DNA of 64,000 nucleotides, from assembly GCA_037310415.1 (NCBI GenBank), contig CP147780.1, positions 2,016,001 to 2,080,000 on the forward strand, written 5' to 3'. Both the position numbers and the translations under genes were made by a program. The DNA is from Candidatus Atabeyarchaeum deiterrae. Lineage in GTDB: Archaea > Asgardarchaeota > Atabeyarchaeia > Atabeyarchaeales > Atabeyarchaeaceae. The notes under the pieces are model-generated. The model searched no databases. It saw only the letters and a list, made by a program, of their open reading frames with translations, and had not been told where the DNA came from. This document shows positions 1 to 24,242 of the stretch, piece after piece (the stretch's first letter is position 1; every line of letters starts with the position of its first letter).

Positions 1-1
1 G

Positions 2-5643: not shown

Positions 5644-5706
5644 AACGTGTGTGCTGACTTGCATAGTATCCTTTATTGCGGTCGGCGGTATCCTATGACG
5701 GATTTC

Positions 5707-5819: not shown

Positions 5820-5898
5820 ATTAATAGATCGTCACTATGAATGACTGTAAAATGGTTACATCTAGCACCTTGCTTTCTTGTGGAAAAAAAGGAGGGTG

Positions 5899-7478: not shown

Positions 7479-7684
7479 CGCGGTATCACCTTGAGCATGG
7501 CGATGAGCTTCGGTAGTTTTCTAAGGGCTTCTCTGTCTACTGGTATGTATTCGAGCTGTGCGGCTAGGTGAGAAAATAGGGATCTCCAGTTGTCGAAAGT
7601 CTTTTTGCAGACGCATTGTATTAAGAGGTACGGCTTAGTGCTTGGTTTGGCGTTTGATCTTCTCTTGCTCTCTGTTGTATTCAT
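7475..7684 (-). CDS. C2H2-like Zn-finger viral protein
   Basis: CVCKKTFDNWRSLFSHL (CxC...F.....L..H). Confidence 0.55.
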   Translation of the reverse strand: MNTTESKRRSNAKPSTKPYLLIQCVCKKTFDNWRSLFSHLAAQLEYIPVDREALRKLPKLIAMLKVIPR

Positions 7685-7795
7685 CTCTTGTATCACAGAT
7701 GTCGGTATATGGACTTGCGCAGTAGGCTGAACCATCGAGTCTACACACCCCCGTTGCCTGTCGGTACCACTCACATAGGTCGTCTTTGGCTTTGG

Positions 7796-8143
7796 TTAGA
7801 AGTCGGCTGCCTTGTCTAGTTGCTTGCGTGACTGGTCCCTCCTTTCCTGCTCGAACTTGACATGTGCGCGTATGAAGTCCTTGTTTTGGATGCCTGTTTT
7901 GATGAGTAGGGCGAACTGGCTGTATGACATGGTTAGTTTGCCTTTACCTGCGCCGAGGAAGATGTTGCCGGAAGACTTTGGGTTGTAGACGTATTTGCCT
8001 GTGTGTTCGTCTTTGGTGGTTCCAGGGTTCATTCCTAAGAAGAGTCCGTCGAGGTTGGCCGTTATTCGTTGAGACAAGTCTATTTCCTTGTTCTCAACTT
8101 TCGTGCCGTTCTTAGCGTTCGGATCAGTACTATTACTGCTCAT
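7796..8143 (-). CDS. First gene of the viral replication operon, hypothetical (possible ssDNA-binding)
   Basis: SD GGAGG upstream, 115 aa. Function is inferred from position only. Confidence 0.55.
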   Translation of the reverse strand: MSSNSTDPNAKNGTKVENKEIDLSQRITANLDGLFLGMNPGTTKDEHTGKYVYNPKSSGNIFLGAGKGKLTMSYSQFALLIKTGIQNKDFIRAHVKFEQERRDQSRKQLDKAADF

Positions 8144-8165
8144 GCTTTGTATAGACCTCCGTCTA

Positions 8166-8193
8166 TTTGCATATAAGTCGGCTTATGTGAATG
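8166..8193. other. dif-like Xer recombination site A: TTTGCATATAA-GTCGGC-TTATGTGAATG
   Basis: 11-6-11 layout with inner ATAA/TTAT, as in E. coli dif (GGTGCGCATAA-TGTATA-TTATGTTAAAT); sits exactly at the provirus/island junction. Confidence 0.75.
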
Positions 8194-8347
8194 ATGCGAG
8201 ATGACAGTTTCGCGGCTGCTATCAGCTATGAACGGAGTTAGCTCCGCGGACTGACATCACAAAACACATGTCAAAAAGATCACTAGTTCCGTTTCGAGGC
8301 ATTCTTCGTCGAGGATGAAAACTTGACGTTCGATACTCCTTACGAGT

Positions 8348-9406
8348 TCAGGATCTCTTCGTCAGCACTGCCACGTAACCATGCTTTGGATTTCGCTTTT
8401 TTTCAACAATAAATGACCATTCTCTCTGCTTTGAATATAGCTTCGCATCTTCCAACGCCTTGGACACAAGCCTTGCAAGCACAACGTTGTTGCCCCTGGC
8501 AAGTACATAGATCGCTTCGATGCCATCCTTCGAACACTGAGAAGCCTGTTTAATGTAACGCGTCGCATCAAAACCAGTCGACATGCGTGCTACCGGCATG
8601 AGGTTCAAGCTAATCACCCTGCCCTTGAGCTTGAGTTGAACCTCCTCCTCTTTTTCTCTTTCTTCGAAGGTTTTAAGCAATAACACAAGATCACTCGTCT
8701 CTTTTTCTGAATGAATGTCGGACCGTGCAGGAGATAACTTTGCATCCAACTTCGATAGCTCCTGAAGTAGAACTCTTGTGAAGTGCCCTTGTTCGTCCAT
8801 TTTATCCATCGCGGGAACATAGTCTCTGATGAGCTGAGCTTTCTGTGCCTCAGGTTCCATGAACTCCTCGCTAAGGCAATCCAAAGCGTCAATATTCTCA
8901 TCGAGCATGAGCATTTTTCTTACTACCTCGAACGTTACAGACTTCATGACCGTCCTGTCTATAAACCTTCGCGATCGCTGCAGCAAATCCTCCCTAACAT
9001 AGAATAATGCCGCCCTCGCAATGTTTCTTGATTCATTGTCACTGGGCTCTAGACAGACTATGATTTTCCCGTCCTTCAGAAATGAGTCTCTGTCTATTGG
9101 TTTTGCCCACTTGATCTTCAGTCCATGTGGAAGGAGAAGAACTCCTTCCTTGTTGATCTTTCTGGAGGCGGAGCCTATTGTGCTCTCCAGGCGTGTTTGC
9201 ACTGCTTTTTTCTCAAACCAGAAATTGACGCCTCGAAGCAACTTATAGACAGAAGCCATAAGATTTCTATCGGGATCAGCAATGACAATGACAAGAATCG
9301 CTGAAATGAAAGCCGGAAGCAGACCAATAGTGCCAAGATACCAGACGAAAAACGCGAAACAAGCTACGATAATGACCGCTGCTATGATCGCTTTCCTAAC
9401 AGCCAT
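8348..9406 (-). CDS. Hypothetical protein with N-terminal TM hairpin and large cytoplasmic domain
   Basis: Likely ATG at 9406 (MAVRKAIIAA...), overlapping the upstream small gene. Confidence 0.7.
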   Translation of the reverse strand: MAVRKAIIAAVIIVACFAFFVWYLGTIGLLPAFISAILVIVIADPDRNLMASVYKLLRGVNFWFEKKAVQTRLESTIGSASRKINKEGVLLLPHGLKIKWAKPIDRDSFLKDGKIIVCLEPSDNESRNIARAALFYVREDLLQRSRRFIDRTVMKSVTFEVVRKMLMLDENIDALDCLSEEFMEPEAQKAQLIRDYVPAMDKMDEQGHFTRVLLQELSKLDAKLSPARSDIHSEKETSDLVLLLKTFEEREKEEEVQLKLKGRVISLNLMPVARMSTGFDATRYIKQASQCSKDGIEAIYVLARGNNVVLARLVSKALEDAKLYSKQREWSFIVEKKRNPKHGYVAVLTKRS

Positions 9407-9641
9407 GTATAGACTCTCCCATAGTGAGCCTTTCCATTTCGAAGATGCACTCAGCCTCAGTACAGCACACGAGGATATCACTTGGAGAAGGAATAATGAA
9501 ACCAATGTTGACCACAGAGACTTTGCAGCCACAAACTGAACACCTCAGCTTGCCTTTTCTCAGCTTGCCGAACAGTCCTAATTCTCTTAGCAAGCCCTCC
9601 AGTCTTTTTCTATGAACTGCAAGTATCTCAGCTTTGTCCAT
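9396..9641 (-). CDS. Small Zn-binding protein
   Basis: ATG at 9641 (MDKAEILAVH...); CSVCG...CC...EC. Confidence 0.7.
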   Translation of the reverse strand: MDKAEILAVHRKRLEGLLRELGLFGKLRKGKLRCSVCGCKVSVVNIGFIIPSPSDILVCCTEAECIFEMERLTMGESIHGC

Positions 9642-10105
9642 ATCCCCTACCCCGTCATTTAGGCTGAGATTAGGCAATAAAAACCTTGCCATCAGGCTGC
9701 GATCCCCGCAAACCGTACGATAGGGATATGCAACTGAACCAGTACCATACACCACTCGCTTATCCGCGTCGTGGCAGTCGTCATGCACTCGTCACCAGAA
9801 GAAGACATGATTCTGGTTTTGATGAAATGATACTTCGCTCCAAGGAAGGATCTTTGCTGGTTCCAGAGGCGATGTCGCTTTTATGGGCTAGACGCAGCGA
9901 CGAGAAGAAAGCTTAAAACTGAGTTGAGGGGTTGTTAAATGAAGTCGGAGCCACCTCGAAATCGCGCTCCGAGCACAGAAGGTAGATTTGAACAAAAACT
10001 GTGGAAAGTGGCATCGACAGCAGCAGGGTACTTTGAATTGCGGGAATAGTCCCACAGATCTTGCCAGACTCTCTCCAGAGGATCTGACTGAGTATCAGTT
10101 CCTCT

Positions 10106-11086
10106 CTAGGACATTCTTTCTGTTATCATGTCCGATAGCCTCTTAACGTCCTTGGGGATTTTCTTGATATTCCTGACGATGAGTCGCTTGACAAACCAGT
10201 TGGGCGCAGGTAGTCCTTTAGACATGAAAAGTAAGGCGATCAGCCTCTTTGGATCCGTTTCCTTCGTCGAATCGTAAAATGCGCGAACCTCTCCTTCGCT
10301 CACCACAAGTGTTCGAGCTAAGGCCTTCGGATCAGCCAGGTAACCATCGATGTTTCTTCTTGACCACACAAAGATCTCCTCGTCTCTTGCACCAGCATTC
10401 TTCAGTTCCGTTATCCTGCTCTCTCTATCAGTGTCAGGATCGGCGACGAAAACCAATGGAAAAGAAGCTTCGAGCGCTCTGAGTTGCCGTATGCACGCTT
10501 TCAATTCATTTATTCCGTTCGCTCCCCAAATGAGAAGGTTGCCCATGTCCAAGCCAGTTTTTGCTAGAAATTCCTTCAAAACCCAGAAATCTTCTTTACC
10601 TTCCACTATGATCCTGCACTTCTGAGCTACGAGTACCTCTTCCCATTCTGTCTCTTCATCGGAAGGTTCGTAAAGCTTGCCAATCTGTTTCGCCACATGC
10701 TTTAATCCGTTGATAAAGTAAGGTCTGCAATTGTCCATTTCCTCAGCCTCTATATAACACCAGCTGCATGCGTACTCATTAAGCAGGAACTTCGTGTGCA
10801 TGTCTTGGTCACAGTTACTACACTTGCCATAGTACTCACATATGAAAAATGTCTCAGTTCCCATTTCTCTTTCGTCTTCTTCGACAACCTCCGCTCCATC
10901 AAGGGAGAGTATGAGGCTAGGTTGATTACAGTTAATGCACCGAACCGATGCAAGCACACCTTTGACCTCATCCTCAATTGGGCCATCATATCCGTATCCA
11001 ACTCCCACACCAGACTTTGAGTTAAGTCTTAATGCCGCCCCCTTGAGTATCAAATAAACAACGTCTTTCTCTGCCTTTTTCATCAT
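10106..11086 (-). CDS. Zn-ribbon + OLD-like TOPRIM domain protein
   Basis: CINC and CSNC in the N-terminal half; IIVEGKED and VADPD (DxD) TOPRIM motifs in the C-terminal half. Confidence 0.7.
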   Translation of the reverse strand: MMKKAEKDVVYLILKGAALRLNSKSGVGVGYGYDGPIEDEVKGVLASVRCINCNQPSLILSLDGAEVVEEDEREMGTETFFICEYYGKCSNCDQDMHTKFLLNEYACSWCYIEAEEMDNCRPYFINGLKHVAKQIGKLYEPSDEETEWEEVLVAQKCRIIVEGKEDFWVLKEFLAKTGLDMGNLLIWGANGINELKACIRQLRALEASFPLVFVADPDTDRESRITELKNAGARDEEIFVWSRRNIDGYLADPKALARTLVVSEGEVRAFYDSTKETDPKRLIALLFMSKGLPAPNWFVKRLIVRNIKKIPKDVKRLSDMITERMS

Positions 11087-11149
11087 ACCTCACTTCCGAC
11101 ATACGCCATACGTCTTGCCATGCTCGTTACTACTGACAATCTCAAGCTC

Positions 11150-12436
11150 CTACTTCGCTGCTGATGAAAACATCTTAGGTAGAGATTTCTGCTCGATGAT
11201 AGTTCTGATCTCATCCACAAACCTTCTGCATTCGGTCAGAAGATCACCACTCGTTTTCCTAGTCAAGTCTATGACCCTGCAAGCAAGTATGACATCGTGT
11301 TTAAGAGACTTCTCGTAGCTGATTTGCATTTCGCTCATAGGATAAACAAGAACACCGATCGGAACCTTCTTCACCGGCATCATACAATAAGTAAAAATCT
11401 GTCTAGCATCTTGGGTGCTGGGATCAGCTTGTTCTTCATCATCATCTTGCAAGCGTTTATATTTCGCATCAAGAACTAGAACATCTATCCCATCTTTTGA
11501 TATCTTTACGTCGGGCTCTTGGATCATATCTCCTTCAAGATCAAGAGCGTACGGCGGATTACCTTCTTTGGCCGCCCTAACGCCGTAGTCTCGCAGGTTC
11601 TCCCTCAAGCAACAAAACACAAAGTCCTGAAACAATTGATCCATGTTAATGAGAAACGAAGAATAGGGAATCTCACCGATCTCCTCAAGATTGAGGGTGA
11701 CGTTGTCGATTATTAGCCGGCTTAGATTCACAATCGGCCTATAGTGTTCGTTTAGCCTATTGTATTGCACGTGAGGGAAATCCTTGCTATCGATTACTAC
11801 GAAGGACGCGGACTCAAAGAAATAAAAGATTTCCTTTGCCTTGTTTCTAAGCTCACTGTTTTGAAGAGGCATCCGCGATATGTAGCTGAGTGCGTATTTG
11901 ATTATCCGGTTCTCGACCGTGTCAGATGTGAAGTCTGAGAAGGAGCAGAAAATCCTGTGTCTCAAGACTGAATTTCTTCTAATGTCCTCTTGAATTAACA
12001 CTCTGCCCGAGACATGATTGAGATTCTCATCATTTTCAACATACGCTTTGGAAATGCCCCTCCTTGCAAGATGTCCGACATCTTCGAGGAATCTCTCAAT
12101 TATCAACTCGAAGATCTCTTGCTCTCTCATGTACTCCGATTCGTTCTTCCCGAAATCGGGTATGCCGTTAGTGTACAAAAGCATAAAAAAGAAGCTCAGA
12201 TTGGGAACCTTTGGCCTAATGATAATGCGATGATGAGGGAGAGCGATATTCCCAACGTATTGTCTTGCTTTCAATAAACACTTGCCTTCTGGAGTCACGT
12301 AGGCTTCTATTTTGTTCTTAAATCGGTTGGCGAGAATCTCGAATTCATCTTTGCTTAACTCAACGATCTCGGGTGGTCCTCGCTCTTTCAATTCCACGAC
12401 GAATGGTGCCTTTTCCACAGCAGTTGTTCGGAGCAT
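11150..12436 (-). CDS. mcrC: McrC-family PD-(D/E)xK nuclease
   Basis: YVG.I, ENRIIK, FLINMDQLFQDFV, EPD...LDAKYK, DARQIFTY; directly downstream of mcrB. Confidence 0.9.
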   Translation of the reverse strand: MLRTTAVEKAPFVVELKERGPPEIVELSKDEFEILANRFKNKIEAYVTPEGKCLLKARQYVGNIALPHHRIIIRPKVPNLSFFFMLLYTNGIPDFGKNESEYMREQEIFELIIERFLEDVGHLARRGISKAYVENDENLNHVSGRVLIQEDIRRNSVLRHRIFCSFSDFTSDTVENRIIKYALSYISRMPLQNSELRNKAKEIFYFFESASFVVIDSKDFPHVQYNRLNEHYRPIVNLSRLIIDNVTLNLEEIGEIPYSSFLINMDQLFQDFVFCCLRENLRDYGVRAAKEGNPPYALDLEGDMIQEPDVKISKDGIDVLVLDAKYKRLQDDDEEQADPSTQDARQIFTYCMMPVKKVPIGVLVYPMSEMQISYEKSLKHDVILACRVIDLTRKTSGDLLTECRRFVDEIRTIIEQKSLPKMFSSAAK

Positions 12437-12442
12437 ATTCTA

Positions 12443-14650
12443 CTAACCAGCGTTCGGCTCCTTGGCGATTGCATGAATGGCAGTGAGCACTTCATCAAAG
12501 ATCTTCTGAAAGCTATTGACAGTATCCTCGGCGTCAAAGTAATACTCTTCGAGCAAGGGCTTTATGTTGTGCGTCCACGTGTCTTGGAGTTTCCTTTTGT
12601 CAAGCTTCTCCAGCATGAAATAGCTGTGGCCGATTTGGAAGTGCTTTCCTAGTTTGGGATCTCCCTTAATCTTCTGGTTCAGCTTCTCGAAGAGATCCAC
12701 TACTATATTCTTATCAATGAGTGAGGGGTTCTTTTCAAGCCACGCTGACAATACCTGTCGGTCAGGCATGAATTCCTTGAAAGCAAACCTTCTGCGCAGG
12801 GCATAATCAACCAAAGCGATAGAGCGGTCAGCACTGTTCATTGTTCCGATGACATAAAGATTGCTAGGCAGAAAGAAATACTCATGAGAATAGGGCAATA
12901 ACACTCTGTTCCTTTCTCCACGATATTCGAGGCAATATATTAGCTCCCCGAAGATCTTCGCAAGATTTCCCCTGTTTATTTCATCTATAACGATTACGAA
13001 TTTTCGATTTGGATTTCTTATCGCCTCGCTGCAAACACTCTTCAATATCCCGTCACAGACCTCGTAAGAGATCTGTTTTTCGGAAGTGATACTTGGTCTG
13101 ATTCCCTCCACGAAGTCCTCATAACAGTAACTCGGATGAAACTGAACCAGTTCTGTTCTTCCTCCATCTCGTGCAAAATACCGTGCAAACTCGGTTGCAA
13201 CAAGGGTTTTACCAGTGCCGGGCGGACCGTAGAGAATAAGTTGCTTCTTCTCCTCGAGTAGGCGCTCAATTTGAACAAGGAAATCCTTCGACAGCATGGT
13301 TTCGTCTGAAAGCTGCTCAAGGGTAGTTGTGGCCGCCGCCCCAGCCTCAGTAGCTTGGGTTGACTCTCCAACAATCAACGAATACACTGGATAGAGTTGG
13401 CTGAATGTCTTGGTCACCAACTCTGTGATTCCTGGACCCGCAGAAATAGCGTCATCCTTGCTGAGAAACCTCCCTATGTGTATGTGAGTGTCTGTATCGG
13501 CTAAGTGATTAATGAAGTTGTCCATATCCTGGGGAAGTAGCGCTGACGGATCTGCCTTGAGGGTGTATCCTCCATGCAGCTCAATCGTGTCTTCAACAAG
13601 ATGTGCCACCAACTTCTGGAAGGCATCTCTATTGTTTTGTATGTTTTCTTTTACGATTTTCATTCTTGCCTCTGAAGCCTTTCCATCTATCCATATGTCG
13701 ATGCTCAGCTTATGTGAATTCACAACATTGATGCCGACCTGAAATTGAACCCCTTGTTGTGCTCTCTCGAATTTTGGATGCGCTAACCCTAGCCACATGT
13801 GATGTCTATATGGAGGATTCTTTTCGCCTCGCTTAGGCTGCTGATTGGGTCTTGCGGAGTATGCCTTGAAGTTGTCAAACTTGCTGTCCAGCTTGGACTT
13901 TATGACATTTAAGAGTATTTTGAACCTTTCACTGAGATAAACCGCATCATCTTTCTTTCCGGTGCAAGAATCAAAGTCTTTTTCTTCGAAGGCAAAATCG
14001 GCAGTCTTAGTCTTGACTGGAACTTCTGTCCTTGGCAGAAATCCTTCTCTTCCAGTGAGATTTTCAAACTCATCAATGAACCATATGAAGTGATCAACGC
14101 GATCTAGATCTGGGAAGCCATAGGCTTTCTTAATAACATTTTCAAACTCGGTGTACTTCTTGACCTGATCGCCAAAAGACTCTGAATCAAACTGGAGTTG
14201 TACTCCAAGCCGTTCACTGAGATTGTGTGTCCTCTTGTTGACAAGAGCGACACCTGCGTCAGGTATGATGGCACATACAAGCTCAGACAATCTGCTGCGA
14301 CCCAATCCCTTCAAGCGATACTTCGGATCTGAACAAGTTGCATCGATTCGGGTGAACAGGTCTCCCTCGCCAAAGAACAGAAACTTGAAGGTGCCGCGAA
14401 TTCTTGAGATATCGTTTTCCTTCGTGAGTTCTTCGCCAAACCTTGTACCTACCCCCCATAGTCTTGCGAACACGTTGTTCACGTCTTCTTTAGACAATGT
14501 GCTGACTGTCTTCTGATTAACGATATCTCTGAACCATTCTTTACGCTTGTTTCTTTCCTCAATATCTTGGGAAAGCTTTGGCCAATTCTTGAATTCAGAG
14601 AAATAGAGATCAAGAGCCTTTCTTTGTTGCTCATTAAGCTCCATAGACAT
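12443..14650 (-). CDS. mcrB: McrB-family AAA+ GTPase with long N-terminal recognition region
   Basis: GPPGTGKT, VQFHPSYCYEDFVEG, IDEINRGN, GTMNSADRSIALVDYALRRRF, IGHSYF. Confidence 0.92.
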   Translation of the reverse strand: MSMELNEQQRKALDLYFSEFKNWPKLSQDIEERNKRKEWFRDIVNQKTVSTLSKEDVNNVFARLWGVGTRFGEELTKENDISRIRGTFKFLFFGEGDLFTRIDATCSDPKYRLKGLGRSRLSELVCAIIPDAGVALVNKRTHNLSERLGVQLQFDSESFGDQVKKYTEFENVIKKAYGFPDLDRVDHFIWFIDEFENLTGREGFLPRTEVPVKTKTADFAFEEKDFDSCTGKKDDAVYLSERFKILLNVIKSKLDSKFDNFKAYSARPNQQPKRGEKNPPYRHHMWLGLAHPKFERAQQGVQFQVGINVVNSHKLSIDIWIDGKASEARMKIVKENIQNNRDAFQKLVAHLVEDTIELHGGYTLKADPSALLPQDMDNFINHLADTDTHIHIGRFLSKDDAISAGPGITELVTKTFSQLYPVYSLIVGESTQATEAGAAATTTLEQLSDETMLSKDFLVQIERLLEEKKQLILYGPPGTGKTLVATEFARYFARDGGRTELVQFHPSYCYEDFVEGIRPSITSEKQISYEVCDGILKSVCSEAIRNPNRKFVIVIDEINRGNLAKIFGELIYCLEYRGERNRVLLPYSHEYFFLPSNLYVIGTMNSADRSIALVDYALRRRFAFKEFMPDRQVLSAWLEKNPSLIDKNIVVDLFEKLNQKIKGDPKLGKHFQIGHSYFMLEKLDKRKLQDTWTHNIKPLLEEYYFDAEDTVNSFQKIFDEVLTAIHAIAKEPNAG

Positions 14651-14737
14651 TCAACCTCACAGTAACCAACAAGACGATCGGTGGCGGCATTAGGAAGAAG
14701 CAATGAAGGATCGGGTCACACTTTGGATAATACTCGG

Positions 14738-15343
14738 CTATTTTTCTCCTGCCACGATTTTCCCTATTTGCCTGCTTATCTCATGCAACTCAACACGCTT
14801 CTTGCGAAGGTCTTCTCTGAGCGTGTTTATTATTTTTAGTCTTCTCTCCTGCTCATCAACCGGCGGTATCGGAACAATGACGTTTTTCAGGTCAGACACT
14901 CTAGCATAGCGAATGGCAGAGCCCGTTGCGAGCGAGGCAAACTGATCCTGAACTACCTCTGTCGCCAGAGCACTGCAAAGATAATCAGGATTTGCGACCG
15001 TCTCATCAACTCTCAGTACAATCAAATTCGGTCCGGCAATTGCCTCTTCAAATTCTCTTGTCACTAATGCCACCTTACCCACAGTGCCAGTAATCGAGAG
15101 AAGTACATCGCCATTTCTCAGAATAGCCTCGTTCGTCCTGAGGAATCCAGGATGCACGTACTTCAGCTTGAAACCTGTAATTATGCCATCATTCAGATCT
15201 GAGACGCGTACGTAGGGCGAGGAACCCTCAACGCGCTTGTCTGAAACTTGCTTAGGTGGAACGGAAATTCCTCTAATAAACTCCTTGACTATCTCATCAA
15301 GCCTCTTACCCTCAAGAGTCTTCGCTGCTTTGGAGCCAGACAC
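14738..15343 (-). CDS. Stand-alone single-TRD type I specificity subunit (half HsdS)
   Basis: PYVRVSDL, GDVLLSITGTVGKVA, ATGSA, VPIPPVDEQERR followed by one coiled-coil. Confidence 0.8.
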   Translation of the reverse strand: MSGSKAAKTLEGKRLDEIVKEFIRGISVPPKQVSDKRVEGSSPYVRVSDLNDGIITGFKLKYVHPGFLRTNEAILRNGDVLLSITGTVGKVALVTREFEEAIAGPNLIVLRVDETVANPDYLCSALATEVVQDQFASLATGSAIRYARVSDLKNVIVPIPPVDEQERRLKIINTLREDLRKKRVELHEISRQIGKIVAGEK

Positions 15344-15928
15344 CGGAACCCCTCCATGTCTTTTTTGTGTCTGCTTAACGCGTTGACGAAAAGCAGGCTA
15401 AGAATGATCACACCATAACTAGTTTCCACGGAGAATATACCTCTTATGGAAGGATTGCGAGCTTCTCAACCCTCTTTCTTATCTCCCGTCCAGAGGAGTA
15501 CAGGAAGAGGACTAGTGTCTATTCATCCTATGTCTACATCTCATATTGCCAAGCAAGCCTTTCCGTCCGCGTTGCGGATTTCCCACGCATAGAGTTGGAA
15601 TGAACTCCTATCTTGATTAAGCTTAAATGAATCATCATCTCATAAGATAACAGGCGAATAAGATCGCAGCTTGAAGACAAGCTACTCTGCATATCCGAAG
15701 GAGGCTGTAGGGAGGCCCAAGTGCGCATCCTCGAGATCGGTGCCAAGCGCTTAGCTATTTGAATTTGGGAACCTTGCCAGAATGCTCTGAACTGCCTTGA
15801 GGTCGTAAGCGAATGAGCTGCTCACGATTCCCTTCGCGAGCAAGAAGCTGTGGTAGTTGGTGGCGAAGGCCTTGCGGAATCGTCCAAATGTGAGAATGCG
15901 ACAGTCGGAATCTGAAATTCCGGCTGGA

Positions 15929-18739
15929 ATGAACATTTCTGAATGGAAGACGAGGAGGGAGAAGATCGATCTTCTTCTGAAACGTTCTGGCTGGGATCCA
16001 AAGGATAATAGCAGAGTAATCGAAGAAGTAGACACCAAACAATCAGACTTCAACACAAGAAACTACAAGACTAGATCCCAGACTACCAGAACTAGGGAGG
16101 CGAAAGCCTATGCCGATTATCTTCTCCTTGATTCAATAGGATCCCCGTTGGCCATAGTGGAGGCTAAGAAGTCTTCAAAGGATCCAATACTAGGGCAGAG
16201 ACAAGCAGAGGGCTATGCAGACGATATCAAATCTGGCTCAGGGAAAACCACGTTCATTTTCTTGGCGAACGGTTACGAGGTCTGGTTTTGGAACAGACCA
16301 TATGAGAACCCAAGAATGGTGAGCGGCTTTCACGATAGAGCGTCTTTGGAAAGAATACGGTTCCAAGATCTTACGAAGAAAGACTTTCAGGAAGTTCCAA
16401 TCAAGCCAGAGATAATCGACCGACCCTATCAGATCGAATCAGTAAAACGTGTGCTTGAAGGGATCGAAAGAGGAAAAAGGAAATTCCTTATCGTCCAAGC
16501 GACCGGCACAGGAAAGACCCGTGTTGCGATGGGACTGATTGATGTTTTATTAAGAGCAAACCGTGCTGAAAGAATTCTCTTTCTGGCTGACAGGAAAGCA
16601 CTTCGTGACCAAGCCTACGGCGATCTTGGATTCAAAGCATTTTTCCCAAATGAGTTGAAGACCAAAGTCTTTTCTGCAACAGTGACCAAGGACCCTCGGC
16701 TGTACGCCTCTACGATTCAGACTTTCATGGAGTGCTACCAAGAATTCTCCCCTGGGGACTTTGATGTGATCATCTCGGACGAGGCACATAGATCAATTTA
16801 CAATAAATGGAAGGATGTCTTCACATATTTCGATGCGATCGACGTAGGGCTGACTGCCACACCATCGGAGCTCATCGAGCGGGATACGTTTAGGTTCTTC
16901 GATTGTGAAGACGGAACTCCGACATATCTGTACACTTTCGAGCAAGCCGTGCAGGACGGCTTTCTCGTCGATTTTCGAGTCTACATAGCGCAAACTCACT
17001 TTCAAATAGAGGGAATCAAACCAGAGGATGTGCCAACCGAAGTGAAGCGCAGGCTAATCGAAGACCAAGGAGTGAGCGAAGAGGAACTTGACTTCGAAGG
17101 AACAGACATCGAGAAAAAGGTTGTTATTATCGGCACTAATGAAGCGATTGTCAAAGAGTTCATGGATAATTGCCTGATGGATGAGACTGGTACAATTCCA
17201 GCAAAATCGATCATATTCGCAGTGTCGAAGAGACATGCGAAAAGACTTTGGGAGGCGTTCGAGAAGCTCTACCCACAGTACCGAGGGAGACTCGCACGCA
17301 TTATTGTGTCAGAGGACAGCCGAGCGCAGGAACTAATCAAAGAGTTCAGGAATGACGACTGGCCTCGCGTCGCGATCTCCGTTGACATGTTGGACACTGG
17401 GATAGATGTGCCTGAGATATGTAATCTCGCCTTTGCAAAGCCGGTCTTCTCAAAGATCAAGTTCTGGCAGATGATAGGAAGGGGAACCCGGAACGATGCC
17501 ACCTGCAAAGATGAACATAGGCACTGGTTGCCGAGCCGGAGGAAAGACTATTTCCTCATCTTTGATTTTTGGAATAACTTTGATTGGTTCAACATGCATC
17601 CAGAGGGCAAGGAAGCAAATCCAAGCGAGGCCATTCCATCAAAGATCTTCCTTGCCAGATTGCTGCAATACAACCTTCTCCTTGGCAATAAGGATGAGCG
17701 GACAAAACTACTGAGAGCGAAACTGGTTAATGATGTCAAAGCCCTTCCGCAAGAATCCATTTCTATCAAGGAACATATGCAGGATGTTGAAAAAGCATTA
17801 TCATCACATTTCTGGGATACTGTGGGGCTAGACGCTTTCACGTTCCTCAAAACAAAGATTGCCCCACTGATGAAATACCAAGAAGATATAAACATGAATG
17901 AAGCAGCCTTCACACTGAAAACTGAACAGGTGAGCCTGGCGATTCTAAGGAACGATGAACCAGAGATCGAACGACTACGAGACGATATCGGCGAGTACCT
18001 CAACTGTTTGCCCACAACGATTCGAGAGGTAAAAGAGAAGCAGGATCTAATTGACAAGGCTCTGCAGAAGTCATTCTGGCAAAACATCACTTTTGAAGAT
18101 GTACAAATGCTTTGGAGTGAAATCCTCCCGTTGATGAAATACAAACAGCCCGAACCCAGGCCCATGATCACCCTAGACATTGATGACATGATCCAGCGTA
18201 GGAGCCTGATCGAGTACGGTCCGAAGCCATCACAAGAATATGTCAATACGTACGTACAAAAGGTGGAGAAGAGAATCAAGAGCCTTGCCGAGCAGCACCC
18301 GACTATTCAGAAGATTAAGCGAGATGAGGTAATCACAGAAGATGACCTCAGGTATTTGGAGGGAACATTGAACGGTCCAGAGCTGTATATCACCGAGGAG
18401 GTGCTCCAAAGAGCGTATCAACAGCACAGGGGAACATTGGTCCAATTCATCAAGAAAGTCTTGGGCTCATATGAGTTTCCTGACCCGAAGAAGAGAATCG
18501 AAGACGCATTCAAAACTTTCATGATAGAGAAGAATTACCTAAATGCAGATCAAGTCAATTATCTGAGGACCATCCAGACAGTATTCATGAAGAAGCATCA
18601 CATTGATTATAGGGACGTGTTAGAACCACCATTTACAAACTTTGGCGTCAACTCTCCAATCCCGAGTGACGACCTGACAGAAGTGATAGGCTTATGCCAC
18701 AGCCTGGAGTCAGAGGTGTTTGCAGATGCTAGCTCCTGA
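15929..18739 (+). CDS. hsdR: Type I restriction subunit R (EcoEI/EcoAI-like)
   Basis: ADYLL..EAKK nuclease motif, ATGTGKT, DEAHRS, GLTATP, QMIGRGTR. Confidence 0.95.
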   Translation: MNISEWKTRREKIDLLLKRSGWDPKDNSRVIEEVDTKQSDFNTRNYKTRSQTTRTREAKAYADYLLLDSIGSPLAIVEAKKSSKDPILGQRQAEGYADDIKSGSGKTTFIFLANGYEVWFWNRPYENPRMVSGFHDRASLERIRFQDLTKKDFQEVPIKPEIIDRPYQIESVKRVLEGIERGKRKFLIVQATGTGKTRVAMGLIDVLLRANRAERILFLADRKALRDQAYGDLGFKAFFPNELKTKVFSATVTKDPRLYASTIQTFMECYQEFSPGDFDVIISDEAHRSIYNKWKDVFTYFDAIDVGLTATPSELIERDTFRFFDCEDGTPTYLYTFEQAVQDGFLVDFRVYIAQTHFQIEGIKPEDVPTEVKRRLIEDQGVSEEELDFEGTDIEKKVVIIGTNEAIVKEFMDNCLMDETGTIPAKSIIFAVSKRHAKRLWEAFEKLYPQYRGRLARIIVSEDSRAQELIKEFRNDDWPRVAISVDMLDTGIDVPEICNLAFAKPVFSKIKFWQMIGRGTRNDATCKDEHRHWLPSRRKDYFLIFDFWNNFDWFNMHPEGKEANPSEAIPSKIFLARLLQYNLLLGNKDERTKLLRAKLVNDVKALPQESISIKEHMQDVEKALSSHFWDTVGLDAFTFLKTKIAPLMKYQEDINMNEAAFTLKTEQVSLAILRNDEPEIERLRDDIGEYLNCLPTTIREVKEKQDLIDKALQKSFWQNITFEDVQMLWSEILPLMKYKQPEPRPMITLDIDDMIQRRSLIEYGPKPSQEYVNTYVQKVEKRIKSLAEQHPTIQKIKRDEVITEDDLRYLEGTLNGPELYITEEVLQRAYQQHRGTLVQFIKKVLGSYEFPDPKKRIEDAFKTFMIEKNYLNADQVNYLRTIQTVFMKKHHIDYRDVLEPPFTNFGVNSPIPSDDLTEVIGLCHSLESEVFADASS

Positions 18740-20210
18740 ACTGAAGTCACAGATCAACAAACTCTGGGACCGATTCTGGGCAGGCGGAATTGCCAACCCA
18801 CTCACAGCAATAGAACAAATGTCATACTTGATTTTCATGAAGAGACTTGAAGATCTGGACAACGCTGAAGAGAAAAGGGCCATTGCTCGAAGTGAAAAGC
18901 ATACTTCAGTATTCAAGGGTCACGAAGACTGCAGGTGGTCGCACTGGAAGCATTTCAACGCGGAAGCTATGCTGAAGCATGTCCAGGAAATCGTCTTCCC
19001 ATTCATCAAGAGCCTTACCAATGGAGATGATGTTCTCTTCTCGCAATACATGAAAGATGCGGTTTTCGTCATTCCAAAAGCATCCTTGTTGCAGGAAGCC
19101 GTCGCAATCATAGATGATCTGAAGATTACAGAACGTAACAGGGACACTCAAGGAGACATCTATGAGTATCTTCTTAGCGAGTTGAAGACCGCAGGGAAGA
19201 ATGGACAATTCAGAACTCCAAGACACATTATTCGGATGATGGTTGAGCTGGTAGACCCAGACATAGGTCAAACCATTTGTGACCCAGCCTGCGGAACGGC
19301 TGGATTCCTAATAAACGCATACGAGCACATATTGAAGAAGTACACGAGTGAAGACATACTCAAGATGGACGAGGAGGGAGTGGCTCATAATCTTATTGGC
19401 GACAAGATAGTTGAGAAGAGCCACTGGAACCTCCTGAAGAGGGAGACTTTCTATGGATTTGATTTCGACGCCACAATGGTGCGCATAGGGCTCATGAACA
19501 TGATACTTCACGGAATCGAGAGACCAAACATTCGATATGCCGACACGCTCTCAAAGAAATTTGTACAGAAAGCGCAGTACGATATAGTCTTTGCTAATCC
19601 ACCATTCGCTGGCAGCATAGATAAAAATGATATCAACGATGCATTCAGACTTGACACGACGAAGACGGAACTCCTGTTTTTTGAATTATTCCTTAATCTG
19701 CTTCAGGTGGGAGGGCGGGCTGCAATCATCGTTCCGAATGGCGTTTTGTTTGGCTCGTCAAGCGCGCACATCAGAGCCCGAAAGATATTGTTAGAAAACT
19801 GTGAGCTTGAAGCAGTTATCTCTATGCCTTCAGGAGTTTTCCAACCTTATGCTGGCGTCGTCACGGCAGTGTTGGTTTTCGTAAAAGGAGGTAAGACCGA
19901 CAAAGCTTGGTTCTACGAAATGCGTAAAGATGGGTACAGTTTGGACCAGAAGCGAGAGTTCATAGACGGCAAGGGTGACATCCCGGACATTATTCGAAAA
20001 TTCAAAAAGCGAGAAGAATCAAGCCAAAGTATGTCAGTACCATTTGAGAAGATTGAGCAGAATGGTTACAACCTATCGATTTCGAGATATAAGAAGATTG
20101 AAGGAGAGAAGGTCGAGTATGATGACCCCTCTCAATTGATCGACAATGTGTTGGAAATCGAGCATGAAATAGCGAGTGAACTTTCTGCTCTGAAAGAGAT
20201 GATAAAATGA
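18726..20210 (+). CDS. hsdM: Type I R-M N6-adenine methyltransferase
   Basis: GQFRTPRHII, DPACGTAGFL, ANPPF. Confidence 0.95.
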   Translation: MLAPELKSQINKLWDRFWAGGIANPLTAIEQMSYLIFMKRLEDLDNAEEKRAIARSEKHTSVFKGHEDCRWSHWKHFNAEAMLKHVQEIVFPFIKSLTNGDDVLFSQYMKDAVFVIPKASLLQEAVAIIDDLKITERNRDTQGDIYEYLLSELKTAGKNGQFRTPRHIIRMMVELVDPDIGQTICDPACGTAGFLINAYEHILKKYTSEDILKMDEEGVAHNLIGDKIVEKSHWNLLKRETFYGFDFDATMVRIGLMNMILHGIERPNIRYADTLSKKFVQKAQYDIVFANPPFAGSIDKNDINDAFRLDTTKTELLFFELFLNLLQVGGRAAIIVPNGVLFGSSSAHIRARKILLENCELEAVISMPSGVFQPYAGVVTAVLVFVKGGKTDKAWFYEMRKDGYSLDQKREFIDGKGDIPDIIRKFKKREESSQSMSVPFEKIEQNGYNLSISRYKKIEGEKVEYDDPSQLIDNVLEIEHEIASELSALKEMIK

Positions 20211-21403
20211 GCACACAAGGCGCCTGGAGCGAGTATGCGCTTGAAGATCTGATAGTGGACATTCAGCCAGGCTTTGCTCGAAGACCTTCGTCTGAACCTG
20301 CGAATGTTCCGCAACTTAGAACAAACAACATAAGCCCAGAAGGCAGATTGGATCTGACGAAGTTCAAGTTTGTACCCGCATCAAAGGACGAAATCAAGAA
20401 GTATTCGCTTGTGAAAGGCGATATTCTGTTCAATAATACCAATAGCGATATTTGGGTTGGAAAAACAGCATTTGTCGACCGAGACCTCGAAGCATTGTTC
20501 AGCAATCATCTCACTCGTCTGAGAGTGGACACCTCCAAGGTTAACCCTCACTTCCTGGCAATGCATCTTCAGAAGCTCCAGAAAGATGGATTTTTCAGGT
20601 CAATTTCTACTCGCTGGGTAAACCAAACTGCAGTAAACACGAATGCACTGCTAGAGTTGACAGTAAAGATTCCTTCGTTGGACCATCAGAGAAGAATCGT
20701 TGCGATCTTGGACCGAGCTGACACTCTGAAACGAAAACGTGAACAAGCAAATCACATGACTGACGAGTTCCTCAAAGCTGTTTTCTTGAAGATGTTTGGA
20801 CGCGGGTCACCAGAGAACAGAATTGCCGATGTTGCTGAGTTTGTCTCAAGTGGCGCGACTCCGCTAGGAGGAGAGAAAACATATCTGCCAGAAGGAATCA
20901 CATTCATCCGAAGTCAAAACGTCCTTATGAATAAGCTCCAGCTTAAAGATGCTGCACATATTTCGGAAGACGTTCATAAGGAAATGAGGAGAACCTGGGT
21001 CAAGAACGGGGATGTACTTCTGAATATTACAGGTGCGTCACTAGGTAGGGTTGCTGTCTATGCAGGGGAAGATGACAAAGCCAATGTCAATCAACACGTT
21101 TGTGTAATCAGATTGAACAGATCTAAAGCTGTTCCAGAATATGTCTCTCACTACCTCTCAATGCATGATGCACAGAATGAGATTTGGACGATCCAGGCGG
21201 GGGCGTCAAGGCAGGCTTTGAATTTCGAGCAGGTGAAATCCCTGAAGATATACCTTGCGCCTATCCATGAGCAGAGGACGTTTGCCTCTATTGTCGACAA
21301 GATCAACTCCCTCAAGGAAAGACAACATCAGTCTACCCAAGAGATAGATGAATTGTTCAGTTCTCTAATGCACAAAGCATTCAGAGGCGAGTTGAATGCC
21401 TGA
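20207..21403 (+). CDS. hsdS: Type I R-M specificity subunit (two TRDs)
   Basis: Two GD(I/V)L TRD repeats, IPSLDHQRRIV and APIHEQ..F, terminal KAFRGEL. Confidence 0.93.
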   Translation: MSTQGAWSEYALEDLIVDIQPGFARRPSSEPANVPQLRTNNISPEGRLDLTKFKFVPASKDEIKKYSLVKGDILFNNTNSDIWVGKTAFVDRDLEALFSNHLTRLRVDTSKVNPHFLAMHLQKLQKDGFFRSISTRWVNQTAVNTNALLELTVKIPSLDHQRRIVAILDRADTLKRKREQANHMTDEFLKAVFLKMFGRGSPENRIADVAEFVSSGATPLGGEKTYLPEGITFIRSQNVLMNKLQLKDAAHISEDVHKEMRRTWVKNGDVLLNITGASLGRVAVYAGEDDKANVNQHVCVIRLNRSKAVPEYVSHYLSMHDAQNEIWTIQAGASRQALNFEQVKSLKIYLAPIHEQRTFASIVDKINSLKERQHQSTQEIDELFSSLMHKAFRGELNA

Positions 21404-22226
21404 CATATATTTCTTGATTCGCCCTCACTGGCAGAGGCTCAACAGAGAAATATGGAACTCACTTGAGAAATCAAAATCTGCGCCTCAAGATATGTACGTC
21501 GAATTGTTACGCTTGGTCTTCCAGCAATTTCATGTCAACCCGAATGTCTCAGCACCACAAATGGCGACTCTGAACGACCCAGATCTAGCTAGATCCGTAT
21601 TCAGAAAGTTCCCTATTCCTCCGGATGAATCTTCATGCATTGAGTTTCTGGAGGGCTTCTACGTCGTATTGAAGGCTTTCGGTCGCAACATATCTGAGAA
21701 GTACCGGTTGAAATTGTCACAATTCCTTGAAGAACACAACTTTCGATATCGGCTTGCCGCTGAATGCAAGATCGAGCTGACGTTGCAAGGATTACTGATG
21801 AGTCAGTTTTCCCATTTGTGCAAGTCTATAGCTAGTAGAAGTGAAAGAATCGAGTGTTTGCGAGAATTGCAGACAAGCCTGACACGTTTGCTGGACACAG
21901 ACGGTGAGAAAACTTGCATCAGGATCGCTAGCAACTTGCTGGAGGGACTGGCAATCGATAGGTCCGGACATAGGGCACGGACACTCGGTCCCGCATTGGA
22001 TAACTGTCCCGATCTCTTTCCGCACAATTCATTGAAAGATTGTGTTAAGAATCTCTATGAGTTTTTTTCTGACTACCCAAATATCAGACATTCAGGAACG
22101 CCGGCCAACAGACTGAGAGACTTGAACAAAGATGATGCACTTCTTATGATCGCTTTGAGCTTGGGTCTCTCATCATTTATGTCGAGCAGCAACGCTACAC
22201 AGCAGATTCTTGGTGGAAATCTATGA
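21396..22226 (+). CDS. AbiJ-like/HEPN-type protein coupled to the type I R-M operon
   Basis: 8-nt overlap with hsdS; C-terminal LYEFFSDYPNIRHSG resembles the LY.y.Sd...iRH motif of AbiJ-associated HEPN domains. Confidence 0.5.
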   Translation: MPDIYFLIRPHWQRLNREIWNSLEKSKSAPQDMYVELLRLVFQQFHVNPNVSAPQMATLNDPDLARSVFRKFPIPPDESSCIEFLEGFYVVLKAFGRNISEKYRLKLSQFLEEHNFRYRLAAECKIELTLQGLLMSQFSHLCKSIASRSERIECLRELQTSLTRLLDTDGEKTCIRIASNLLEGLAIDRSGHRARTLGPALDNCPDLFPHNSLKDCVKNLYEFFSDYPNIRHSGTPANRLRDLNKDDALLMIALSLGLSSFMSSSNATQQILGGNL

Positions 22227-22725
22227 TTAGCCATCCCTGCAACATCGAGGCAGGAATTGGCGACCGAACTCTAGCAAGGCAGGAAGAGCCCTCATCTTCC
22301 TATCTCTATTGGACTCGCTTGGCGCCTTCATCAATGACGAACATGACCTGCATCATGGCACGCTTTCCAGACGTATTGGACTTGCAAACCTGCCAAATAG
22401 GGCGAACCTCTTGAACCTGCAAAGAGGATGTCCCCACTACTATATCTGTACTTCCTCCTTGGGGGAAACTCCATGAGAATATGTTAACAAACATCCCCAG
22501 TAACATCAGGGGAAACCTCCTCCTCACCGAGATCATGCCGATTGGAGAGCTCCGTGAATCGTCCGAGAAGCATCCCAGCCCCTCGCCAGGTCTCTCATTC
22601 ATGCATATTTACATAGCCTCCTGTCTATTTTAATGGTTTCCTGTTAGATTTAATGTGACTCTGATGCGTTCCTATTTATGAAATCACAATGCCAGGAAAA
22701 GGATCACACACATTACCTCCAACAC

Positions 22726-23640
22726 TCATGCCTCTATGCCTCCATCGCCTTCCAACTGTTTGCTTAGAAGTTTCAGTCGGATCAATTCCTCCTCAGTTTC
22801 TCTCATGTCCACATCTTCGTATATCGCAGTTGTCTCCCTGTTCTTATGGTGTAGCAGATTCTGCAAGTCAACAGTTCTGAGTCCTCTGCGTCTCAGCTCA
22901 ACGGCAAAGGTATGCCTCAACTTGTGCGGAGACAACTTCTTGTTTATCTTCGCTCTCTTTGCTGCGTTTTCCACAAGGTACTGTAATCCCCGCCTCGACA
23001 GATCGATTAGTAGATCATTTTGGTCCAAGTTCTCGTCGGCAATATGCCGCTTCACAAGTCTTGGCATATCTTCGCTGACCAATGCAGGAACTATTATGTA
23101 TTGTCTTACGGCTCCTCGCTTGAGCCTGACCCGAACGCGGACTCCTTCGAGATCGATGTCTCTGACCCTCACACCGAGGAGTTCGCCCATCCTCATCCCG
23201 GTCGATACTAAGAGGTTCAAAACAAGCTTGTCCCTCGGAGTCTTTGCTGCTTTTAGTAGTCTGTCCTTTTCCGCTTCAGTAAGATATACTGGGTTCCTGG
23301 GTGGTCTTGACATTCTACCTGCCCTGGGCATGGGGTTTCCAACCATTCTGTCCGTGTCCATCATATACTGGAAGAAGGATGATAAACAAGCTCTCACGGC
23401 TATTATCGACGACCTTTTGTATGCATTCTTATGTGGCCTATCCTGGCTGGGTCTACTGAGAAACTCCAGGAATGCTGCGACGTCTTGCTTTCCGATCTGC
23501 TTGATGTCTTTGTCTGTTCCAAGAAAGCGCCGGAACATCCTCAGGGTATACTCATACTGTCTTGGCGTATGATCAGATGTATCGCTAAGCCTCAGTTGGG
23601 ATAGAAATGCTTGTATTTCCTTCTCCATGGGACCATTCAC
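22726..23640 (-). CDS. Xer-family tyrosine recombinase (XerA-like)
   Basis: N-terminal SAM-like domain, TGMRMGEL (R), HKLRHTFA (HxxR), LLHH..RETTAIY (H, Y). Confidence 0.92.
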   Translation of the reverse strand: MNGPMEKEIQAFLSQLRLSDTSDHTPRQYEYTLRMFRRFLGTDKDIKQIGKQDVAAFLEFLSRPSQDRPHKNAYKRSSIIAVRACLSSFFQYMMDTDRMVGNPMPRAGRMSRPPRNPVYLTEAEKDRLLKAAKTPRDKLVLNLLVSTGMRMGELLGVRVRDIDLEGVRVRVRLKRGAVRQYIIVPALVSEDMPRLVKRHIADENLDQNDLLIDLSRRGLQYLVENAAKRAKINKKLSPHKLRHTFAVELRRRGLRTVDLQNLLHHKNRETTAIYEDVDMRETEEELIRLKLLSKQLEGDGGIEA

Positions 23641-23651
23641 CTAGTGATATG

Positions 23652-23679
23652 ATTGCACATAAGATGTATTATGTGCAGT
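23652..23679. other. dif-like Xer site B: ATTGCACATAA-GATGTA-TTATGTGCAGT
   Basis: 11-6-11 site with arms 10/11 symmetric, 11 nt upstream of the recombinase start; left and right arms are 9/11 and 8/11 identical to site A. Confidence 0.85.
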
Positions 23680-23682
23680 ACC

Positions 23683-23690
23683 TATAAAAA
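23683..23690 (-). promoter_or_regulatory. TATA box for the recombinase gene
   Basis: TTTTTATA on the - strand just upstream of site B. Confidence 0.5.
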
Positions 23691-23855
23691 GTCCCCTATT
23701 TTGAGCATTTTCCCCCCTCCCCAAACGGCAAAAAGCAGCACACAGCGAATGTAAAAGCTATAAGAATCCATAGAACCTAGCATTCCAGGTAAATAACGGG
23801 GCCTTGACGGATCCAGCCAAACCATGGATAATTCTCGCGAATGCCTCATTCTCAC

Positions 23856-24242
23856 TCAGATCAGTGAGAGTTCAAGGGCGGGCAAGGCTTCTTTGATTTT
23901 CTTGAAGTCTTCATCCGCCGTTATCAGTCTCAGGTTGTTGACTACACAAGAGGAGGCAATCATTGTGTCAAAATCATTGACCTTCTTTCCACTTTTCATA
24001 AGATCCGCGGCAACCTTGGCCGCAAGGTGAAAATGCTCTTCCACACGCACTATGTTGAGTGATTCTAGGATCCTATCTACGAACTCTTTCTCCTTTTTTC
24101 CGTAGTAGTTGGCTCCTATCAGAAGCTCATAAATGGTGATTGTAGTGGTGTACAACTGATCGTCTTCACCCAGGGTGGTTTCCAGCAACTTCGGTTCACT
24201 CTTAAGCTTCAGAATGGCGGATGTGTCTAGACAGGATCTCAA
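23856..24242 (-). CDS. vapC: VapC-like PIN-domain toxin
   Basis: CLDTSAI, ITIYEL, DFDTMIAS, LITADEDF. Confidence 0.9.
   Translation of the reverse strand: MRSCLDTSAILKLKSEPKLLETTLGEDDQLYTTTITIYELLIGANYYGKKEKEFVDRILESLNIVRVEEHFHLAAKVAADLMKSGKKVNDFDTMIASSCVVNNLRLITADEDFKKIKEALPALELSLI

Follow-up and report, generated by a model that had tools for sequence, protein, structure and literature searches.

How does an archaeal chromosome come to carry a block of defence genes together with a XerA-like tyrosine recombinase, set between two dif-like sites whose cores do not match and directly beside a block of foreign-looking DNA that has no recombinase of its own? The question is raised by a 64,000-nucleotide stretch (the window; genome positions 2016001-2080000) of the one-contig, 2,756,679-bp genome of Atabeyarchaeum deiterrae group 2 (Atabeya-2), an Asgard archaeon from wetland soil. 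This genome is labelled G000 here, G001 and G002 are relative genomes, and L-numbers denote loci on metagenomic contigs. The original prediction held that a single XerA-like enzyme had stacked a rolling-circle virus and a defence island at the dif locus, in the manner of the bacterial integrative mobile elements exploiting Xer (IMEXs). Three near-unique dif-like sites beside a sole XerA-like recombinase, and the return of this layout with other cargo in relatives, suggest, on sequence comparison, a landing pad for mobile DNA of the bacterial style. The reading that we favour, with somewhat better than even confidence, is that the locus is a site-specific recombination platform on which one island-resident XerA-like tyrosine recombinase acts at two classes of site.

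Two of the sites, A and B, lie in the window (Table 1), and re-reading showed the positions and sequences first assigned to them to be exact. The third, C, was found where a further site had been predicted, at the supposed provirus's left end, 1.44 kb upstream of the window. All three have the architecture of dif, two 11-bp inverted arms around a 6-bp spacer in non-coding DNA. The last gene of the left block starts 23 bp from site A. Site B is separated from the recombinase gene, which encodes a 300-aa enzyme and probably starts at the ATG at 23628, by 12 bp if counted to the GTG and by 24 bp if counted to the first ATG. Site C is intergenic, and its neighbours are a solute-binding/S-layer-type gene and the left block's first gene. 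Recounting the identities between A and B gave the same values as before, 9/11 and 8/11 in the arms and 2/6 in the core in either orientation. C and B have the same arms throughout the 9+9 positions, and in the right arm they agree at 11/11; C and A are equal at 20/22 positions, stand in direct orientation, and have the core (C/G)TCGGC in common.

A genome-wide scan found the motif essentially limited to this locus, with no scatter of equally good hits elsewhere. With up to two mismatches, TGCAYATAA-N6-TTATGTG gives four strand-hits in the window, all at A and B, where shuffled sequences lead one to expect 0.05; the exact pattern occurs in the genome at A, B, and C only. Arm scores, taken over 18 positions with a maximum of 18, are 18 for C and B and 16 for A and for a site at genome position 1813704, and all other positions of the 2.76-Mb genome score 15 or less. 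The sites are not products of chance. Site A also resembles the experimentally used dif of Pyrococcus abyssi, ATTGGATATAA-TCGGCC-TTATATCTAAA (PMC2958812): the left arms agree at 9/11 positions, and TCGGC is present in both cores. As the original prediction had stated, no tRNA gene is visible; none was found by ARAGORN or Rfam in the window and the 20 kb upstream, a negative result that is qualified by the introns in most tRNAs of the lineage (PMC11291895).

We propose that the 11-6-11 sites, with arms TGCACATAA and TTATGTGCA, fall into two classes. A dif-core class, with the core (G/C)TCGGC, would include C and A, and a xer-proximal class, with the core GATGTA or ACTGTA, would include B and would lie between the TATA box and the start codon of xer. 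Because the 6-bp cores differ, sites of one class should be unable to pair productively with those of the other. Among dif-core-class sites from four genomes or contigs, the GTCGGC core is better conserved than the arms.

The second class has a site at the same place before every xer homologue examined. When the regions upstream of xer are aligned, two classes of distal flank emerge, and only the core and the proximal arm are common to both. In the first (G000, G001, L042 xer1, and L055), a conserved G-rich block and the TTTTTATAGG box abut a perfect distal arm; in the second (L042 xer2, L054, G002, and L046), a different conserved sequence of ~45 bp ends in a degenerate arm, CTCGCATTA, and in L042 this flank comes after the cargo of the upstream xer module. 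Precisely where the distal arm of B meets its core, similarity between loci stops. This pattern is most simply read as the entry of a circular xer module into a resident B site through exchange at that boundary, which would make B itself a crossover site. Site B would thus represent a separate class, seated on the xer promoter, and would be no partner of A. The conserved block that abuts its distal arm (Table 1) is the presumptive xer promoter.

The arrangement first noted in G000, a xer-carrying defence island set between two sites whose cores do not match, is seen again at three other loci with different cargo. The bracket, made up of a B-class site, xer, defence cargo, and a dif-core site in the same orientation, is also present in G001, in L042 (JGI contig Ga0315309_1000177, 38.5 kb; also L044), and in L054 (Ga0314860_0000058), and is thus a conserved architecture. 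In L042 (site 19249) and L054 (site 17002), the cargo is closed by a dif-core site with the core GCCGAC, oriented to xer as in G000. We estimate, under a binomial model, that 20 kb would contain a dif-core site matching at 14/18 or more arm positions with a probability of ~4e-5. What lies on the 3' side of xer differs from locus to locus: type I restriction-modification (R-M), HNH plus methyltransferase, bacteriophage exclusion (BREX), PLD plus type IIG R-M plus GmrSD, or HEPN/MNT. L054 is close to G000, with ThiI at 94% identity, but its truncated xer reaches only 82% and its cargo shows no relation, which argues that the module is replaced as a unit.

Further signs of exchange come from G001 and L042. 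The xer gene of G001 is 66-67% identical to that of G000, its right flank is syntenic, and a conserved gene for a 733-aa protein forms the left border. The DNA between this gene and xer, 31 kb in G000 and 40 kb in G001, is non-homologous save for type I R-M at ~30% identity. G001 has four clear dif-core sites in direct orientation, 2-5 kb apart (cores GTCGGT, GTCGGC, CTCGGC, and GTCGGC), followed by two weaker ones, and the blocks between them encode a HerA-like ATPase, a beta-propeller protein, and a glycyl-radical enzyme with TnpB. In L042, two tandem xer genes, each with a B-class site, stand 4.4 kb apart, separated by HEPN/MNT, PIN/VapB, TumE, and MJ0235-type modules. The two genes are 75% identical, a divergence like that between copies of different species.

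In one of the G001 blocks (1992394-1997190), the glycyl-radical enzyme is pyruvate formate-lyase-like and lies with TnpB between two dif-core sites that are equal over 17 nt of core and right arm, the left arm of one being degenerate; an apparently metabolic gene is so carried in a cassette-like block. We also considered an integron-like system, in which a site upstream of the recombinase gene, as here, would serve a series of promoterless cassettes of one gene apiece, with an attC hairpin at the end of each. It was rejected for want of an attC-like series: no repeated sites were found among the toxin-antitoxin genes on the 5' side, and the cargo on the 3' side consists of multi-gene operons.

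The identity of the enzyme bears on a rival explanation close to the original prediction, in which the recombinase is the housekeeping XerA, one dif-core site is the chromosomal dif, both blocks are IMEXs stacked by the host enzyme, and B is an operator or a secondary site. XerA is the best family match of the recombinase, its best matches in the PDB are the XerA structures 4a8e (P. abyssi) and 5hxy (T. acidophilum), and its catalytic residues (R in GMRMGE, H-x-x-R in PHKLRH, H in LLHHKN, and Y in TAIY) align with those of P. abyssi XerA. No further XerA-like gene of the genome exceeds 100 bits, a point left to be checked when the locus was first described, and such a gene is likewise the sole one in both complete genomes. 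The other tyrosine recombinases of G000, a 428-aa integrase at ~0.50 Mb and a weakly matching 163-aa open reading frame (ORF) without a family, are unrelated. The likeness of the sites to the dif of P. abyssi speaks for the housekeeping reading as well. Against it stands the score of the recombinase with the family model NF040815 (XerA_Arch), 183.4 bits, under the curated equivalog cut-off of 220. The corresponding scores are 182.8 in G001 and 172.9 in G002. A copy above the cut-off is present in 49 of 121 Asgard genomes, and among these 121 this family (three genomes) has the sub-threshold form only.

Members of the same clade also occur outside a conserved chromosomal setting. L057 (JGI Ga0436469_0008673) is 9210 bp long with a 35-bp terminal repeat, encodes a D5_N/DUF5906 primase-helicase and a recombinase 62% identical to ours, and has a palindromic 8+8 site, TGCGCATAA-TCCTAA-TTATGTGTA, within its largest intergenic gap. 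It is probably circular and may be a free plasmid or virus whose attP belongs to the same site family. With this homologue and its own site, L057 indicates that the recombinase clade and the site type are therefore also used by free elements. The sub-cut-off score, the plasmid-like copy of L057, and the divergent tandem copies of L042 together make the recombinase look like a resident island or mobile-element integrase rather than a proven housekeeping XerA. In addition, an IMEX that had inserted at a dif beside xer would not carry that gene, and here xer is within the A-B interval; the breakpoint pattern also marks B as a crossover site rather than an operator only. On location, the gene is syntenic in G000, G001, L054, and L055/L056, as the housekeeping reading would have it, yet it has tandem copies at 75% identity and a plasmid-like homologue at 62%, and its conservation between close relatives falls below that of the adjacent ThiI.

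The replication signals do not single out the sites as the chromosomal dif. The suggestion that skew might invert here failed, as neither GC skew, oligomer skew, nor gene-strand skew does so at 2.01-2.04 Mb. Cumulative GC skew has its extremes at ~0.03 and 1.23 Mb, the same ones on which the published replichore model of the genome rests, whereas the gene-strand bias and the most skewed oligomers (AAA, ACA, and CAA) switch at ~0.745 and 2.275 Mb. The skews are thus mutually inconsistent, and the sites, at 2.014-2.040 Mb, do not coincide with a terminus as marked by skew: inversion falls at 2.275 Mb by oligomer and gene strand or at 1.23 Mb by GC. In favour of the housekeeping reading, the sites are 178-181 degrees from two orc1/cdc6 genes (640-671 kb); their distance from the 0.745-Mb minimum of oligomer and gene-strand skew is 168 degrees. 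Given the disagreement of the skews and the place of orc1/cdc6, replication may start near 0.65-0.75 Mb or use more than one origin. Nor are the sites single-copy, as a dif would be, with three strong ones within 25 kb and a weaker cluster at 1.80-1.81 Mb. Taking both sides together, we consider the housekeeping explanation unlikely, though a serious contender.

Under the platform reading, the left block, from C to A, would be a passenger. Its tetranucleotide distance is at the 99.7th percentile among 9.6-kb windows, its GC content is 48.6% against 46.6% for the genome, and it encodes many predicted membrane proteins. Neither a paralogue in G000 nor a homologue in the compared region of G001 (genome 1955001-2045000) was found. 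The sole CRISPR array of G000 has no spacer against it or against the A-B block. Pfam and PHROGs assign no family in the block save for one weak ATPase match, and, in line with the integrase-less state first claimed for it, they detect neither PF00589 nor any other recombinase there (most ORFs of at least 86 aa). Lacking its own recombinase and flanked by dif-like sites in direct orientation, the block has two marks of an IMEX.

Two of its products offer leads to function. In the ESM Atlas, the model of the Rep-like protein matches Phage_CRI clusters with template-modelling (TM) scores of 0.51-0.52 and Rep_trans clusters with 0.45-0.48 (a single-sequence AlphaFold2 model, with a predicted local distance difference test score of 38.6, was left unused). 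The 189-aa ATPase reaches a feature score of 0.95 and TM scores of 0.68-0.75 to mostly viral clusters, a minority of them with PF05707 (Zot). An exhaustive HMMER search yielded 18 distant homologues of the Rep-like protein; the two best are on contigs of 5.9 and 6.8 kb, which lack an integrase and, with direct repeats of 55 and 30 bp at their ends, are probably complete circles. We conclude that the C-A block is a putative integrated small circular replicon without its own recombinase, be it virus or plasmid. As to the rolling-circle virus of the original prediction, the resemblances (gpII/Rep_trans-like and Zot-like, with TM scores of ~0.5) are those of structure and embedding only, with no family at the level of sequence, and no capsid gene was seen.

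These elements can be joined in a two-step scheme. In the first step, a ~9.6-kb circular replicon of rolling-circle type would have integrated by recombination of its own site with a resident dif-core site, leaving C and A. The C-A element would then depend on the neighbouring recombinase in trans, as an IMEX-like or cis-mobilisable (CIME-like) element. In the second, the segment running from B through xer and the defence cargo to A would be a replaceable module whose cargo ends at a dif-core site, and new xer modules would enter at B, at the boundary of distal arm and core, capturing the resident promoter. Deletion of the island together with its recombinase by recombination of A with B is proposed to be impossible because the cores of A and B are mismatched. 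Of the IMEX-like stacking first envisaged, the landing pad with an integrase-less passenger, the third site, and the sole XerA-like gene stand, but the recombinase looks island-borne, B belongs to a second class, and no site is evidenced as the chromosomal dif.

Several observations weigh against the platform reading. Crossover between C and A across a core difference of one position is plausible but is not known for enzymes of the XerA type. Neither the Rep-like protein nor the ATPase matches a Rep or Zot family in Pfam, even at E=10. The related-locus search of viral and metagenome contigs returned no relatives of the Rep-like protein and no free, single-site copy of the C-A element; the site pattern has no match in viral contigs and two in the metagenome, both from unrelated organisms of lower GC. 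No excised, circular, or empty-site junction was recovered from Logan contigs of four runs over genome 2012001-2026000, in which the integrated form is contiguous across C and A and rare excision would be invisible. At the BREX and HEPN/MNT loci, the sequence ends before a far-end dif-core site is reached. Finally, the equal chromosomal position of xer in G000, G001, L054, L055, and L056 would fit a vertically inherited host gene too. An empty single-site allele of the main locus was looked for in relatives and not found; G001 carries its own array of sites.

A broader version of the platform reading can be put forward tentatively, as a possibility that we rate well short of even. It would see in Atabeyarchaeia a natural form of recombinase-mediated cassette exchange, in which one XerA-like enzyme works on two non-interchangeable classes of site; defence islands, with or without xer, would be swapped or stacked between fixed promoter-bearing and dif-core sites, self-deletion would be barred, and the dif-core class would serve both as the site of dimer resolution and as the entry for integrase-less rolling-circle elements.

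In a simpler rival, the sites are unrelated: C and A are the attL and attR of a trans-acting integrase that is lost or distant, B is an autoregulatory operator or promoter element, and the defence genes lie between them by coincidence. The overlap of B with the predicted promoter, with a TATA-like box abutting it, is what this rival would lead one to expect, and the region is hypervariable anyway. A second cluster of dif-like sites also lends it weight. Three weaker sites, oriented against the main array, lie at genome 1804740-1813727 (L036:6740-15727). Their arms score 13, 14, and 16 of 18; two cores, GCCGAC and GCCGGG, are dif-like, and the middle one is GCACAC. They are within a 10.3-kb insertion between NiFe hydrogenase and flavodiiron genes that encodes an 879-aa WD40-Roc GTPase-TIR protein. 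In G002, the flanks of this insertion are 58 bp apart, with no dif-like site between them. As this empty site is without dif-like sequence, our model does not explain the insertion. However, coincidence sits poorly with the arm identity of C and B, with the repetition of bracket and orientation at four loci (G000 included), with the small chance estimate for a far-end dif-core site, and with the unrelatedness of the genome's two other tyrosine recombinases. We therefore regard the unrelated-sites explanation as improbable.

Several known systems share features with the locus. Bacterial dif sites harbour arrays of IMEXs (CTXphi, VGJphi, and TLCphi in Vibrio and the gonococcal genetic island), which lack recombinases and include rolling-circle replicons (PMC5357621). 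As in those arrays, the elements here are in tandem between direct 11-6-11 dif-like sites, the flanks are non-identical, and some arms are degenerate (PMC5357621). Unlike in them, a single XerA-like enzyme is encoded inside the array and is apparently itself exchangeable, the two site classes have unrelated cores, and the sites are only candidates for a chromosomal dif role. Archaea, to our knowledge, are also without FtsK, which is a further difference from the bacterial arrays. Accretion of integrative and conjugative elements and cis-mobilisable elements, as with ICESt1/ICESt3 of Streptococcus thermophilus, likewise puts integrase-encoding and integrase-less elements in tandem; their att sites are recognised by a common integrase, and the passenger is mobilised in cis or in trans. 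The att sites of ICESt1/ICESt3 have one core, derived from the end of a tRNA or fda gene, whereas the sites here are dif-like palindromes and the island ends have different cores. The pdif modules of Acinetobacter plasmids are small, swappable accessory or toxin-antitoxin modules delimited by many Xer-type sites, which alternate in orientation, are plasmid-borne, and are used by XerC/XerD. The 2-5-kb blocks of G001 are reminiscent of them, but here the sites are direct repeats, the setting is chromosomal, and one recombinase is involved.

With the archaeal XerA/dif systems of P. abyssi, Thermoplasma, and Sulfolobus, the locus shares a single recombinase with a SAM-like N-terminal domain and 11-6-11 sites with inner ATAA/TTAT, and with the dif of P. 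abyssi a TCGGC-containing core (PMC2958812). Archaeal dif is described as single-copy (PMC8371274), with two copies at one locus in S. solfataricus (PMC2958812). Here, unlike in those systems, the gene falls under the family cut-off and copies of its clade are on mobile elements. The single recombinase gene with a site directly upstream recalls XerS/difSL and XerH/difH (PMC5357621). In those systems, however, that site is the chromosomal dif, whereas the gene-proximal core here differs from the dif-core class and marks the junctions of tandem xer modules.

Exploitation of Xer and tandem stacking are well studied in bacteria; in the literature searched, we found no description for archaea of Xer exploitation by mobile elements or of tandem stacking at one site. 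A review of archaeal tyrosine recombinases regards dif as single-copy, and the term IMEX is absent from it (PMC8371274). The papers on these genomes (PMC11291895 and PMC11529989) catalogue mobile elements and mention neither Xer nor dif; in the mobile-element paper, the string "xer" has 0 occurrences. Four integrated elements of Atabeya-2 have been published, and either block may be among them. Were the cassette-exchange reading true, the locus would count as the first IMEX-type system of archaea, found moreover in the closest lineage to eukaryotes. Should the model hold, it would explain the turnover of defence islands at one fixed locus in an Asgard lineage, would identify att sites and an enzyme for a set of integrase-less elements, and would supply a compact recombinase with two orthogonal 28-bp sites that could later be of use in archaeal genetics. 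It also bears on how chromosome dimers are resolved in Asgard archaea with bidirectional replication as compared with other archaea.

The contents of the A-B island are listed in Table 1; a 98-aa ORF is present there as well. Two of its proteins, PDC-S32-like and HEC-01B-like, match PADLOC candidate systems only and may be extra defence genes beside the type I R-M and McrBC systems. The type I R-M operon with an additional, inverted half-size hsdS beside xer brings up another rival, in which the recombinase is a phase-variation enzyme of an hsdS shufflon and the sites serve to invert specificity genes. Type I R-M also stands beside xer in G001, G002, and L046. Yet no inverted repeats link the hsdS genes, the best pair being 29 nt with 76% complementarity; the orphan half hsdS and the full hsdS are 29-30% identical in protein; the sites lie outside the hsdS genes and in direct orientation; and other relatives have BREX, type II or IIG R-M, or toxin-antitoxin modules after xer. 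With no inverted repeats and with non-R-M cargo in relatives, the shufflon was rejected as a very remote prospect.

Table 1. Features of the locus, in window coordinates unless marked otherwise
Feature	Position	Strand	Remark
Site C	genome 2014532-2014559 (window -1468 to -1441)		CGTGCACATAA-CTCGGC-TTATGTGCAGT
C-A element, right-hand 8.2 kb of 9.6 kb	1-8165	.	runs 1.44 kb further upstream, to site C
189-aa viral-type P-loop ATPase	3892-4461	+	possibly Zot/AAA-like; PHROG DnaA-like 6e-5
347-aa Rep-like protein	5899-6942	-	possibly gpII/Phage_CRI or Rep_trans-like rolling-circle initiator
Site A, putative dif-core class	8166-8193	+	TTTGCATATAA-GTCGGC-TTATGTGAATG
394-aa protein at island edge	8348-9532	-	no Pfam, NCBIfam, or PADLOC match
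326-aa TOPRIM/DUF3226-like, HEC-01B-like protein	10106-11086	-	weak Pfam match; PADLOC HEC-01B 1.8e-7
McrC	11150-12436	-	PF10117 1.4e-55
McrB-like AAA_5 NTPase	12443-14650	-	PF07728 2.6e-19
Orphan half-size hsdS, single target-recognition domain	14738-15343	-	PF01420 1.9e-15
Type I R-M operon	15857-21403	+	hsdR 15857-18739, hsdM 18720-20210, hsdS 20207-21403
276-aa protein, PADLOC candidate PDC-S32-like	21396-22226	+	8e-10
XerA-like tyrosine recombinase	22726-23640	-	PF00589 and SAM-like N-terminal domain (PF02899)
Site B, putative xer-proximal class	23652-23679	+	ATTGCACATAA-GATGTA-TTATGTGCAGT; core reads TACATC towards xer
Conserved block, presumptive xer promoter	23680-23730	-	G-rich stretch, then TTTTTATAGG TATA-like box abutting distal arm of B
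PIN toxin and upstream partner, first flanking toxin-antitoxin module beyond B	23856-24532	-	PF01850 2.3e-16
EAP30/Vps36-like winged-helix protein	25253-25675	-	
TnpB (Cas12f-like TNB domain)	26206-27528	-	
ThiI	27623-28933	-	

On the 5' side of xer, toxin-antitoxin modules are present in all relatives. The 5.8-kb stretch with the genes for the EAP30/Vps36-like protein, TnpB, and ThiI has a GC content of 51.9% and stands apart in composition (99.3rd percentile); in L054, ThiI and TnpB hold the same position. To the left of C, toxin-antitoxin pairs (PIN/MazE-like and HepT/MNT-like) lie at genome 2004848-2005542 and 2008325-2009068 and are 60-82% identical to pairs adjoining xer in relatives, the HepT/MNT-like pair resembling the one directly 3' of xer in L055 and the PIN/MazE-like pair the genes 5' of xer in L054 and L042. 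Because these pairs match the neighbours of xer in relatives, G000 appears to have ~30 kb inserted between xer and the HepT/MNT-like pair.

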